From: a virus
Lineage: Duplodnaviria > Caudoviricetes
DNA: 64,000 nt
Reading direction: 5' to 3' (one strand)
Virus record (IMG/VR): IMGVR_UViG_3300034126_000020
Location: 1-64,000 of that record
A program made the translations under genes and the position numbers. Position 1 is the first letter of the stretch; each line of letters begins with the position of its first letter. The notes beneath the pieces are model-generated. The model searched no databases, was not told the origin of the DNA, and saw nothing but the letters and a program-made list of their open reading frames with translations. Shown piece after piece: positions 49,278-59,183 of the stretch.

Positions 49278-49352
49278 ATAATGTAGGGTCATTTAATGAT
49301 TGAGTGGAATACCCAATCATACAATGATACGGAATAAGAGGAGGGCCGAAGC
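49278..49352 (-). promoter_or_regulatory. Terminator hairpin followed by the CCCTACATTAT promoter-like motif
   Basis: GAGGGC-TTCG-GCCCTC hairpin at ~49340-49355; TGACCCTACATTAT on the minus strand. Confidence 0.55.
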
Positions 49353-50526: not shown

Positions 50527-50575
50527 TTGTCTGTCCCTGTTGAAAGACGGAGATACATACAATTACAAAAAATAA

Positions 50576-51492: not shown

Positions 51493-52101
51493 TTAAACGG
51501 TGGTTTCAACACCATCGACGACAACCTTGACATCAGGCGTCTTGACGTTGGCCTTCTCTTCGGCCTCTTTGCGCTCGCGCAGGATGCGGATCAGTTTCGA
51601 TGCATCCGGCTCGATGTAGAAGTTCAGCGAGGATTCGAAGATGGCGAACTGCTCGTCGTCTTTGAACACCACGATCACTTCCAGGCCGACGCCTTTACCA
51701 GCCGCTTGCCACTGACGCACGAAAGCATGAGTACGCTCGAACTTCTCGTACTCGCCGAGCACCACCTTGGAGACGGCAGTGGACTCTTTCAGGAACATGT
51801 CTTCGTCGATGCTGGCAGCGCGCAGGATGGCAGTCAGTTCCACCTGGCTACGACCGGGCAACGAAGTCCACGGCGATTGCTGGGGAGCGGTCAGACCGGC
51901 GAGGTACTGAGCCACGACTTCCGAATCAGCCCCGAGGGCCGACAGGTCACCGCGGTACAGGACCTTGGTCAGCAGGTTGTCGCGCTTGTAGTGAACGCGG
52001 ACGTTCTGGTTGCCATGGCCGGCTTTACCGGCGAGGGTCAGTTGAACGTCGTCGGTCGCCAGTGGCTTGAGCGCGTTTACGATGGTGTCAAAGATAGTCA
52101 T
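51493..52101 (-). CDS. Hypothetical protein
   Basis: 202-aa ORF, TGATG-coupled to the upstream gene. Confidence 0.7.
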   Translation of the reverse strand: MTIFDTIVNALKPLATDDVQLTLAGKAGHGNQNVRVHYKRDNLLTKVLYRGDLSALGADSEVVAQYLAGLTAPQQSPWTSLPGRSQVELTAILRAASIDEDMFLKESTAVSKVVLGEYEKFERTHAFVRQWQAAGKGVGLEVIVVFKDDEQFAIFESSLNFYIEPDASKLIRILRERKEAEEKANVKTPDVKVVVDGVETTV

Positions 52102-52556
52102 CAGTAGGTCTTCTTCGGCAGGATGTTGTTGACATTGATGTGGTCGCCGTACTCACGCAGTTGCGTGTAGATGTAGCCGACGGCTTTGTGGTCATCGTCG
52201 AGGATCAGGAGCATCAGGCCTTGTTGTTCCTCAGGCGTGAGTTCCTGGATGACGTGGACTTCGTGGTTGTCGAAGTGACCGATCAGGGAGTTGACTTGAT
52301 CAGTACGCTTGAAGTGATCCGGGTTGGTGATAGCGCCTTCAGGCAGGTCGTACAAGTACTGACCAATACCCGGTGTCACACCCAGAGCATAGCGGTAATG
52401 CTCCGAGCGTGCAGCGGCCAGCAACACCATCGAGCGGACCGTGTCGACCACCATGGACTGGATACCCCAGCCCAATGCCTTGTTGTGATCCGGAGCCTTG
52501 GCAACGGCTTCAGTCACGGTGAGGGGGTGATCGAACATGATCATTTCATTGCTCAT
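52101..52556 (-). CDS. Hypothetical protein
   Basis: 151-aa ORF overlapping the ligase stop. Confidence 0.65.
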   Translation of the reverse strand: MSNEMIMFDHPLTVTEAVAKAPDHNKALGWGIQSMVVDTVRSMVLLAAARSEHYRYALGVTPGIGQYLYDLPEGAITNPDHFKRTDQVNSLIGHFDNHEVHVIQELTPEEQQGLMLLILDDDHKAVGYIYTQLREYGDHINVNNILPKKTY

Positions 52557-56920: not shown

Positions 56921-57331
56921 TCAACGACGATAGCCAAGATCGGCGTGTGGATCATCTTTCTCTGCCAAGCCTTCAAACACATTGCTGAAGCCTACTGGCA
57001 TGGAGGACTTCAACACCCGGACCTCGTCGTGACTGGGTTTAGGACGGGACATGAGCTTCTTCATCCAGTCCACGTTGAACCCGATGAACTCACGCTTGCC
57101 TTTGACCGAGAGTACGCCACGACGGACATTGAACCGGTTGGCGTAGCTCTTCATGTTTTCAACGGGACCGTTCAGGACAGCGATGAAGACCTCGTTCTCC
57201 AAGTCCGGCATGAGCAGATGAGGCAGGGCTTCGATCAGGTGGGTCTCGGTGATCCCTAACCCAGCAGCAATCGTTAACGCCTCGTCTTCAGAGTCGGCAA
57301 TGATGATACTGATACCGTTTTCATTACGCAT
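56921..57331 (-). CDS. Hypothetical protein
   Basis: Likely start MRNENG at 57331 with AGGAG SD. Confidence 0.65.
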   Translation of the reverse strand: MRNENGISIIIADSEDEALTIAAGLGITETHLIEALPHLLMPDLENEVFIAVLNGPVENMKSYANRFNVRRGVLSVKGKREFIGFNVDWMKKLMSRPKPSHDEVRVLKSSMPVGFSNVFEGLAEKDDPHADLGYRR

Positions 57332-57357
57332 TAGATTAACTCCTGAGAAATGTCTAT

Positions 57358-57507
57358 CGGCATAAATGGGCAGCATGAGTTTGAGCCCATGCTGCCCGGT
57401 ACAGGCGCCGTTGAAACGTATGCTACTGGCTCCCGCCGATGCTAAACCGTTTCGGGTTAAGCGTGTGCTGGATCACCCCCTCACTAGACAGAATCTACTG
57501 CCTGTAC
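57358..57507 (-). ncRNA. Candidate small RNA (~110-nt body plus terminator)
   Basis: 8-bp closing stem GTACAGGC/GCCTGTAC (57507-57500 with 57406-57399), two inner hairpins, a 10-bp terminator stem (57368-57397) and TATGCCG. Confidence 0.55.
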
Positions 57508-57587
57508 ATACAATAGGATCGCCCTTATTAGTTTTTGGTTACGAGGGTAATGTATCGTTTGAGTAAAATCAAATCCACTATAAACAG

Positions 57588-57613
57588 GGGATACAGGCCA
57601 AGGCCTGTATCCC
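57588..57613. other. Inverted repeat in the divergent promoter region
   Basis: GGGATACAGGCC-AA-GGCCTGTATCCC; role (terminator, insulator or operator) unknown. Confidence 0.6.
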
Positions 57614-57749
57614 TTCCTTATTTGCTTTGTATCTTTTATAGATACCCCTAGGTATCCGAGGCAGCCAAATGATGTGTAGCTGCTCTCTTTATCTCATCTT
57701 GATTTATTGAGTGTCAGCCGCTCTTTAAATCCACTTCGGGTACCAAGAC

Positions 57750-58265
57750 ATGTCTGACATTTCCCTGCTTTCCAAGGACCAAGTACTTGCCTTGGTCAAC
57801 GAGCAAAACCCGGGTCTCAACCTGACGCATGAGAAAGTCACTTTCGGTGATCCTGTCGCAGCGTCTGGTGAAAACCCGGAACGTAACACTGAACTGGTCC
57901 TGACCGGTATTCCAGGCAAGGGCTTCAAGAACACGTCCACCATCCTCTACAACCGGATCGATCTGGCCCAGTTCGAAGTCCAGATCCCGTCGCAGATCCA
58001 AGTAGAAGGTGACGTCACCATCCAATCCATTCTGGATGGTTTCAACCTGTTCTACGGGGCCAACCTGCAACTGAACGACGTGCGTAGCGACCTCACGTTG
58101 CCAGGCGATCTGACCAGCACTCCTGAAGACTTCACCTTGATCGCTGCGGCAGGCTCGTACGCTTATCGCGGTCAGGTGGTCATCAGCATCCAGATGGCTG
58201 ACCAAGATCTGAACGCTGCTATCACCAAGAAAGTCCTGGATGGCTTGACGCTCTCCCTGAGCTAA
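57750..58265 (+). CDS. Virion structural protein, RLDL paralog family
   Basis: LALVNEQNP..VTFGDP..NTELVL..YNRIDL..FNLFYGANL..GSYAYRG. Confidence 0.8.
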   Translation: MSDISLLSKDQVLALVNEQNPGLNLTHEKVTFGDPVAASGENPERNTELVLTGIPGKGFKNTSTILYNRIDLAQFEVQIPSQIQVEGDVTIQSILDGFNLFYGANLQLNDVRSDLTLPGDLTSTPEDFTLIAAAGSYAYRGQVVISIQMADQDLNAAITKKVLDGLTLSLS

Positions 58266-58343: not shown

Positions 58344-59183
58344 ATGTCAATCTACAGTCAGTCGCCCGACCAGATGGTGCGCGAACTGATCAACAATGCC
58401 AACACCCCACTCGTACCCTTTTCTCCTCAGAACTTGACCTTCGGTAAACCGGCCATCGTGACGGGCAACCCTTTGGTCAACGCTACGGTGAATGTACGAG
58501 GTATCCAGGGTGAGGTCTACGCTGGTCAGCTTGCAATTTCGTACAACCGACTGGACCTTAGCGTCCTGTTCCGCGGTAACTACCGCCCAGAATTCACGGC
58601 ATTGGGTCAGTCGACTCTCTACCGTCTATTGCCTGAGATCAACAAGGCCCTCGGCCTGAACTTGACACAAAACGACTTGACTGACGTTGACCTCAAGTTG
58701 TTGGAAGAAGGTGATCAGGTCAACCTTGAACTACGTGCTAAGCCTGAGTCGTTGGCATTCACGGGTCTGGCCACTATTCTGTTCAACCGTCGTCAACTGA
58801 TGCTGACAGACGTTGTAGCAGTTGAGGCGTATGACGAGTTCAAACATGCCGACCCAGTCCTTGAGGGTTACCTCAGTGCTGGCTTGCTGACGTGGGGCCA
58901 GGATTTCACGATCATCGCCCAGTACCTGAAAGTGAACCGTTACGGCAACAACTACAAAGGTAGCTGGATCGACGAAGCCGGGCTCAGAGCAGGCCTGGCT
59001 CAGTATTTCGGCATCGAGAATTGGCCGAGGATCGACACGAGTGCAAACTCCAAGATGACGATCAGGGATTACGCCACGAAAGATCACCCGGATGCCAACC
59101 GTAACTACCAGCGGGTGGTGGTTCAAACCAGCCTGCGCAGCGACGGTTACTCCGGTACTGCTTTCTTCCACTATAACGCCTGA
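58344..59183 (+). CDS. Virion structural protein, RLDL paralog family
   Basis: ELINNAN..YNRLDL..INKALGLNL; C-terminal ANRNYQRVVV..FFHYNA. Confidence 0.8.
   Translation: MSIYSQSPDQMVRELINNANTPLVPFSPQNLTFGKPAIVTGNPLVNATVNVRGIQGEVYAGQLAISYNRLDLSVLFRGNYRPEFTALGQSTLYRLLPEINKALGLNLTQNDLTDVDLKLLEEGDQVNLELRAKPESLAFTGLATILFNRRQLMLTDVVAVEAYDEFKHADPVLEGYLSAGLLTWGQDFTIIAQYLKVNRYGNNYKGSWIDEAGLRAGLAQYFGIENWPRIDTSANSKMTIRDYATKDHPDANRNYQRVVVQTSLRSDGYSGTAFFHYNA

Follow-up and report, generated by a model that had tools for sequence, protein, structure and literature searches.

A structured RNA of phiKZ-like Pseudomonas jumbo phages with an invariant strand complementary to the 3' end of 16S rRNA: a candidate 30S-binding RNA

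RESULTS

A predicted small RNA unit in a phiKZ-like jumbo phage

The stretch of DNA that we analysed (the window) is taken from a 276.8-kb phage genome, G000, of which it makes up the first 64 kb; the ends of this genome are direct terminal repeats. This genome encodes a homologue of chimallin, the nuclear shell protein PHIKZ054 (164771-166384, a 644-aa frame; E 2e-19, 24% identity over 540 aa), and has four genes matching PF12699, the phiKZ internal head protein family. Given the chimallin homologue and the four phiKZ-type internal head proteins, we therefore take the carrier to be a nucleus-forming, phiKZ-like jumbo phage; phiKZ is the model phage of this kind. The closest named relative at the locus described here is the Pseudomonas phage pPa_SNUABM_DT01 (DT01). 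Chimallin homologues were also found in DT01 and in genomes G004 and G005.

The locus consists of a predicted RNA and, beyond it on the same strand, a protein-coding gene:

57363..57507, minus strand: predicted whole RNA of about 145 nt (core plus terminator), placed by the covariance-model core match and the terminator
56921..57331, minus strand: downstream gene of 136 aa, outside the RNA unit; its DT01 homologue is placed elsewhere

No Pfam family was found for the 136-aa gene. Two genes on the plus strand diverge from the RNA, and both match DUF7941 of Pfam (57750-58265, E 6e-30; 58344-59183, E 3e-44). About 80 nt upstream of the RNA lies a perfect GC hairpin of 11-13 bp (57588-57613, both strands; GGGATACAGGCC..GGCCTGTATCCC), and 3' of it on the minus strand is CTGTTTATAGTGG. 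Since L008 retains this hairpin and a TGTTTAT..AGTGG tail despite a changed stem sequence, the element resembles a real terminator. It looks like one that would shield the RNA unit from minus-strand transcription arriving from upstream.

Homologues are confined to Pseudomonas jumbo phages in our searches

Relatives of the RNA were recovered by blastn and covariance models. With blastn, a 119-nt block (57399-57517) matched DT01 at 89% identity, the genes on either side not being alignable; megablast against phages gave no match. The covariance model matched the core in the window at 57399-57507 (131 bits, E 6e-29) and, over homologous loci, gave 26 matches, 23 of them distinct. Exactly one copy was found in each of five complete genomes (G000, DT01, PhiPA3, phiKZ and 201phi2-1). 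Second copies or paralogues, such as the phiKZ 5'UTR-p40 RNA, were considered and rejected, the model giving one copy per genome. The match in PhiPA3 was weak, and every helix there is rebuilt with different bases. Additional copies were obtained through IMG/VR pattern scans and BLAST with the PhiPA3 copy; these lie in phiKZ, PA1C, 201phi2-1, Viktualia and about 20 uncultivated phage contigs. The phiKZ copy, about 180 nt long, is located between PHIKZ203 and PHIKZ204 (AF399011, 212855-213034, plus strand). In 201phi2-1 the corresponding region is 229023-229200 of EU197055. BLAST detected the core in 60 GenBank records, all from Pseudomonas jumbo phages and almost always unannotated. A chimallin gene is present in every RNA-carrying phage that we checked.

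The covariance model did not match any of five jumbo phages from other genera or hosts: Erwinia RAY, KpZh_LPS_45, Vibrio C-ZP2022, Pseudomonas HHBS47_1 and Salmonella SPLA5c. RAY contains a lone GGGGGTGATCC, which lies antisense within the head protease gene and was set aside as a chance match. Might the RNA have come from the host? A search of 101 Pseudomonas genomes gave no match, and three others gave only a weak one (E = 0.66). Rfam 15 had no match at gathering scores anywhere in the window; when 57200-57800 was searched at E up to 10, the sole match was due to chance and lay outside the RNA. The Rfam scan suggested in the initial annotation of this DNA hence matched no family at either gathering or permissive thresholds. 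ARAGORN detected neither a tRNA nor a tmRNA in the window, in agreement with the earlier remark that the RNA is not a tRNA cloverleaf.

The predicted transcript has putative phage-type ends

A compact sRNA of about 145 nt had been proposed at this site, and the bounds of conservation match such a self-contained unit: among relatives, conservation extends from about 12 nt upstream of the G of TATG to the final base of the closing stem. The predicted ends are marked by three features:

57507..57517, minus strand: promoter-like block CCTATTGTATG, conserved, with the G at 57507 as presumed +1
57368..57397, minus strand: terminator hairpin of 10-12 bp, stem GGGCAGCAUG/CAUGCUGCCC
57358..57366, minus strand: terminator tail TTTATGCCG, in keeping with the terminator motif published for phiKZ

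TATG is present at 57510-57507 on the minus strand, where it had been reported. In phiKZ, the late promoter is TATG and transcription starts at its G (PMC4666361). The block (A)TCCYATTRTATG is kept in all homologues of the window type, which diverge farther upstream. ATTRTATG has only three sites in the 277-kb genome, each in an apparent non-coding gap. The phiKZ-type copies carry TATAG instead, together with an AAanTTAC element that resembles a middle promoter and lies at about -27 to -19. From these sequences, the phage's own RNA polymerase would be the likely enzyme to transcribe the RNA, from the TATG-type start.

Two other motifs were observed in this context. ATTGTATG has only three copies in the 277-kb genome, all on the minus strand: one at the RNA, the others at 50556-50563 and 49318-49325. 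These last two come just after GC-rich hairpin-like sequence and a T-rich tail (..TTCGGCCCTCC TTTTATT..). The ATTGTATG sites may represent a small promoter subclass that includes the RNA's own. The second motif, TACATTACC, is located at 57547-57555 on the minus strand, 40-48 nt upstream of the presumed +1, and this 9-mer recurs at two further sites in G000 (98765 and 18027), in both cases with a gene start 20-30 nt downstream. Simple patterns disclosed no recurring early-type motif around 57547, and two further TACATTACC sites are too few to make one. TACATTACC could be the element that the initial annotation called early-type and could direct a second start site, placed about 17 nt 5' of the closing stem.

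At the other end, the terminator stem GGGCAGCAUG/CAUGCUGCCC comprises 10 bp, extendable to 12. It starts at 57397, two nucleotides past the closing stem, and is followed by AUUUAUGCCG (57367-57358), as had been described. DT01, L010, L012 and PhiPA3 retain the hairpin with an altered stem sequence. The intrinsic terminator motif of phiKZ is a hairpin plus YTTATKYYGT (PMC10914365); the window RNA has a GC hairpin followed by this motif, and the tail comes after every homologue. Such a phage-type terminator (hairpin plus UUAUGCC) would be expected to end the transcript. In the phiKZ-type copies (L013, from phiKZ, 1329-1391; L004, from PhiPA3, 1585-1639; L014; L016), the closing stem and the terminator are separated by a further hairpin, variable in sequence, which brings the RNA to about 175-180 nt. 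This hairpin is absent from the window-type copies.

Covariation supports a three-way junction

The 154-nt stretch that spans the unit folds at -60.9 kcal/mol, compared to -47.3 +/- 3.9 for shuffles (z = -3.5). The fold is a three-way junction made of a closing stem (P1), a small hairpin (P2) and a long-range helix (P3) that carries a further hairpin (P4):

57500..57507, minus strand: P1 5' strand GUACAGGC, pairing with 57399-57406
57399..57406, minus strand: P1 3' strand GCCUGUAC, pairing with 57500-57507
57488..57501, minus strand: P2 hairpin GCAG-UAGAUU-CUGU, which has two bases in common with P1
57448..57453, minus strand: P3 5' strand GAAACG, forming a long-range helix with 57413-57418
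57413..57418, minus strand: P3 3' strand CGUUUC, pairing with 57448-57453
57428..57437, minus strand: P4 hairpin GGC-GGGA-GCC, enclosed by P3
57407..57412, minus strand: conserved junction AACGGC (consensus CNACGG), near-invariant in alignments

Across the 23 distinct homologues, 92% of the helix cells are paired, and 14 pairs show changes on both sides. None of 500 shuffles matched either the observed paired fraction or the covariation score, and slid controls were only 24-49% paired. The check on homologue covariation that had been suggested for this RNA was borne out: P1, P3 and P4 all covary strongly in these homologues.

P1 is the 8-nt stem that had been proposed to begin at the G of TATG, and GUACAGGC (57507-57500) does pair perfectly with GCCUGUAC (57406-57399). 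In the 23 sequences, 99.4% of its cells are paired and four of its eight pairs have both-side changes; PhiPA3 provides a compensatory example, GCCAAGGC/GCCUUGG. P2 occurs as GCAGU/ACUGC in the phiKZ type, as GCAGU/ACUGU in the window type and as the compensatory GUACU/AGUAC in L010 and L011. P3 has 91% of its cells paired. It covaried at four of six positions when nine sequences were compared and at all six with 23, its variants being GGAACG/CGUUCC, GAUAC/GUAUC, GGGG/CCCC and GGUAC/GUACC. P4 (GNC-GGGA-GNC) is paired in 100% of cells and covaries at all three pairs (GAC/GUC, UGC/GCA, GUC/GAC). We assigned the RNA to the minus strand because the G.U pairs in its helices would be A-C mismatches on the opposite strand.

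Two hairpins named in the initial annotation fared less well. The UAGA/UCUA hairpin is present in the sequence but is not conserved among homologues; the conserved one is GCAG(U)/(A)CUGY, directly 3' of the 5' strand of the closing stem. The GCUUAACC/GGUUUAGC hairpin is likewise present, but only 73% of its cells are paired and it excludes P3, which reaches 91% and covaries. Neither was kept as part of the conserved fold.

One further helix would affect the strand that links P2 and P3. A run of G's in this strand could pair with a CC(C) that is conserved immediately 5' of P3, and this sequestering GGG/CCC helix is pairable in 88% of cells. Covariation is no guide here, because its G's never vary. 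In thermodynamic folding, the motif complementary to 16S rRNA that is described below was only about 30-60% unpaired.

We conclude that covariation establishes the three-way-junction fold. By the same comparative evidence, this is a real RNA gene family of Pseudomonas chimalliviruses, phiKZ included. It is undescribed so far as our literature searches show: they turned up no paper on the RNA or its 16S complementarity, no report of a phage RNA that pairs with the 3' end of 16S rRNA, and no occurrence of 'PHIKZ204' in the searchable literature.

The invariant strand is complementary to the 3' end of 16S rRNA

The most informative element of the RNA lies in the junction:

57467..57483, minus strand: junction strand UGAGGGGGUGAUCCAGC, between P2 and P3, the complement of 16S nt 1526-1542 (anti-SD tail)

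Within it, the 14-nt block AGGGGGUGAUCCAG is the sole long invariant stretch in the RNA family: it is identical in 23/23 distinct homologues, though every helix changes sequence. The unpaired GAGGGGG noted earlier is indeed present. It is part of AGGGGGUGAUCCAG and so sits inside a 17-nt complement of the 16S rRNA 3' end, a context which the initial annotation missed.

All 23 homologues share this complementarity. The number of contiguous pairs with the 16S tail is 17 in nine sequences, 18 in twelve, 19 in one and 21 in one, and the pairing extends to the terminal A1542 in 20 of the 23. The position opposite U1541 is A or G in every sequence, and the one opposite G1526 is C or U; no other substitution would preserve pairing at these sites. 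The middle of the SD core is G in all sequences, and would form G.U with U1537; the perfect A was never found. The Pseudomonas 16S 3' end was checked by an Rfam SSU match in P. putida, where it ends ...GCGGCUGGAUCACCUCCUUA, a sequence that occurs in many Pseudomonas genomes. The 16S numbering and helix limits used here follow the E. coli structure. By these limits, pairing past nt 1530 would require opening the base of 16S helix 45.

We compared duplex energies with the 16S tail along the window. The strand 57483-57467 forms the strongest such duplex in the 64 kb on either strand, at -35.1 kcal/mol against a background mean of -11.4 (sd 3.2). Opening the RNA costs about 7-8 kcal/mol, and the net value after opening is about -13 kcal/mol with a 13-nt free tail and about -22 with 17 nt. 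By comparison, the CAGGAG of the neighbouring gene gives -6.2 and a perfect 9-nt SD -12.8 kcal/mol.

Does this super-SD serve a small reading frame? In 12 of the 23 sequences no start codon, near-cognate ones included, lies 3-15 nt downstream of the motif. No start codon or reading frame behind it is conserved in the 23 sequences, and linker indels break any common frame. We therefore rejected a small ORF translated from the super-SD, no ORF being conserved. Sequence comparison establishes the complementarity of the invariant strand to the 16S tail.

Gene order argues against a leader function

The initial annotation had allowed that the RNA might instead be an attenuator or riboswitch-like leader for the gene starting at 57331. 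The terminator in the window ends only 27 nt before that start codon, and the GCUUAACC/GGUUUAGC hairpin competes with P3 in window-type and PhiPA3-type sequences, as the two states of a switch might. However, this alternative hairpin is lost in 201phi2-1, L010 and L012, and Rfam yielded no riboswitch match. The neighbours, too, speak against a leader of this one gene. In DT01, the homologue of the 136-aa gene (42% identity) is two genes away from the RNA. The next gene is PHIKZ204 in phiKZ, a helicase in PhiPA3 and gp305 in 201phi2-1, and these are mutually unrelated. In PA1C, both flanking genes are on the strand opposite the RNA. Across the window, DT01, phiKZ, PhiPA3, 201phi2-1 and PA1C, we found no constant downstream gene or pathway. 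Since the neighbours differ and the PA1C flanks lie on the other strand, the RNA is not a gene-specific leader; synteny largely refutes that reading, and we consider it very improbable.

The PhiPA3 helicase, gp233 (L004 1699-3051), has a feature of its own. In tblastn searches with its N-terminal 451 aa, residues of about 150-450 matched terminases, helicases and polymerases from hundreds of unrelated phages. As judged from these matches, the helicase shows the signature of an insert, either an intein or a homing endonuclease.

A cis-acting role that is not tied to one gene has more in its favour. As a stabiliser or standby site, the super-SD would recruit 30S subunits to the 5' part of read-through transcripts, either to guard these against RNases or to supply the next gene with ribosomes, and partial termination would yield the short RNA as a by-product. 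A same-strand gene does follow the RNA at a distance of 27-90 nt in the window, DT01, phiKZ, PhiPA3 and 201phi2-1, and an SD-like site without a start codon is the defining trait of STAB-SD elements. Conditional termination yields many short 5'UTR RNAs in phiKZ (PMC10914365). Yet PA1C, with both neighbours on the opposite strand, has no downstream message to protect, and the downstream genes of the other phages are unrelated to each other. Moreover, a stabiliser has no need for a covarying three-way junction, and the terminator that closes the RNA has the full phage consensus. We regard a cis-acting stabiliser as rather unlikely.

A probable 30S-binding RNA acting in trans

We favour a different function for this RNA, namely that it is probably a trans-acting 30S-binding RNA encoded by a stand-alone gene for a structured ncRNA of about 145 nt in phiKZ-like Pseudomonas jumbo phages. 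Since the only invariant open stretch complements the 16S 3' end, the RNA most likely grips the small ribosomal subunit. The strand linking P2 and P3 would pair in trans with the anti-SD and the single-stranded 16S tail, up to the terminal A. Paired in this way, the RNA would fill the mRNA-docking site of 30S subunits and would itself go untranslated.

Four points speak against 30S binding. The G-run may pair with the conserved CC(C), which would partly hide the motif; pairing past nt 1530 would need helix 45 to open; the SD core has its central G.U pair rather than the perfect A; and the genes of the phage itself use SD sequences.

Two further rivals locate the constraint on the invariant strand elsewhere. 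The RNA could be an ordinary base-pairing sRNA directed at phage or host mRNAs that contain anti-SD-like CCUCC/GAUCACC, its likeness to a 16S ligand being incidental. Candidate sites exist: GCUGGAUCACCUCC occurs in the chimallin mRNA of G000 and G005, and a perfect 14-nt complement, GAUCACCCCCUCAC, lies at 52532-52519 on the minus strand, in codons 9-13 of the ORF 52556..52101 (151 aa). But neither site is conserved. Four close relatives and DT01 lack the second perfect site. As for the chimallin site, DT01 has a synonymous Ser codon that alters it, and neither G004 nor phiKZ carries it. A 14-mer that stays invariant from genus to genus demands an equally invariant target, and 16S rRNA is the only one found. 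In addition, the variation permitted in the flanks fits the 16S bases exactly. An ordinary sRNA is, to our judgment, improbable.

Some details of these two sites may be recorded. The chimallin GCUGGAUCACCUCC (G000 165329-165342, minus strand) is the same as 14 nt of the 16S 3' tail and encodes ..SWITSL..; the match is probably due to chance. For GAUCACCCCCUCAC, about 0.01 matches per genome would be expected by rough estimate.

Perhaps, alternatively, the invariant strand and the junction form the site for a phage or host protein, such as a nucleus-associated RNA-binding protein? The CNACGG junction and the GNRA-like P4 loop are conserved with no obvious pairing partner, and chimalliviruses encode RNA-binding proteins such as ChmC (PMC11077065). 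A protein site, however, would not be expected to match 16S rRNA over 17-21 nt, nor to vary only in ways that preserve wobble pairing, and we saw no protein gene that accompanies the RNA consistently. We judge a protein-binding role to be as improbable as that of an ordinary sRNA.

If the RNA does bind 30S subunits, several outcomes could follow. Competition with mRNAs might shut off or re-program translation late in infection; the 16S 3' end might be shielded from 3'-exonucleases or defence nucleases; or ribosomes might be tethered. Our more specific proposal is tentative: the RNA may be a 'ribosome decoy', a scaffolded mimic of a ribosome-binding site that would capture the anti-SD tails of host 30S subunits and so reprogram or shield translation mid-to-late in infection. 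Because phage genes themselves use SD sequences, a strong competitor would hit phage translation too, unless its dose or location is tuned.

DISCUSSION

To our knowledge, only proteins have so far been implicated in the takeover of host translation by phiKZ. A single-copy RNA that is kept in at least four phage genera, and whose only invariant stretch can pair with the mRNA-docking tail of the ribosome, is a concrete candidate for a part in translation takeover. If 30S binding is true, this would be the first known viral ncRNA to act on the ribosome through the anti-SD. If it is false, an undescribed and strongly covarying RNA family still stands, and it would be worth an Rfam entry.

Small RNAs are already known in phiKZ and 201phi2-1 from Grad-seq and ONT-cappable-seq, as set out in PMC8545117, PMC10914365 and PMC11512511. 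Those named in these texts share the architecture seen here: a phage promoter, a length of about 70-200 nt and a phiKZ-type terminator. They map to other loci, namely p40, PHIKZ297/298, PHIKZ221, PHIKZ302 and gp182 in phiKZ and gp277 in 201phi2-1. One of them, the 5'UTR-p40 RNA (about 180 nt), is found partly in 30S fractions (PMC8545117, PMC10914365, PMC11512511). The three texts mention neither the gap between PHIKZ203 and PHIKZ204 nor complementarity to 16S rRNA.

By analogy, the nearest precedent is rreB. The rreB/rreR transcripts are small mRNAs of Bradyrhizobiaceae and Rhodobacterales with an SD of 16-17 nt; rreB itself is 165 nt long with a 17-nt SD, co-sediments with and strongly binds 30S subunits, and is poorly translated (PMC5711450). 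It has in common with the phage RNA a short transcript in which at least 16 nt are complementary to the 16S 3' end (17-21 in the phage RNA). However, rreB lies on the chromosome and codes for a 14-aa peptide that starts at a properly spaced GTG, whereas the phage RNA has no conserved start or frame. Only in the phage RNA does the complementarity extend 3'-wards, into 16S 1526-1534, and only there is the site held within a covarying three-way junction encoded by a viral gene.

A second comparison is with the STAB-SD of Bacillus thuringiensis cry3A, reportedly described by Agaisse and Lereclus in 1996 as an SD-like site without a start codon. STAB-SD is thought to act via 30S binding and not via translation initiation. 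The two are alike in that no start codon follows their SD-like sequence. They differ in context: STAB-SD sits as a short element within the 5' UTR of a long mRNA, in a Gram-positive host, whereas the phage RNA is a terminated, structured unit with a full terminator before the next gene and, in the PA1C copy, no downstream gene on its strand.

The last parallel is one of principle. 6S RNA is an ncRNA that imitates the nucleic-acid ligand of a core machine, posing as an open promoter to RNA polymerase and so filling the site where the ligand binds; the phage RNA would likewise mimic the initiation site of an mRNA for the 30S subunit. The two RNAs are unrelated in sequence and structure, with no Rfam match between them, and the phage RNA would address rRNA by base pairing and not a protein active site. 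If the decoy reading is true, the phages would possess a ribosome-directed RNA counterpart to the role that 6S RNA plays for RNA polymerase.
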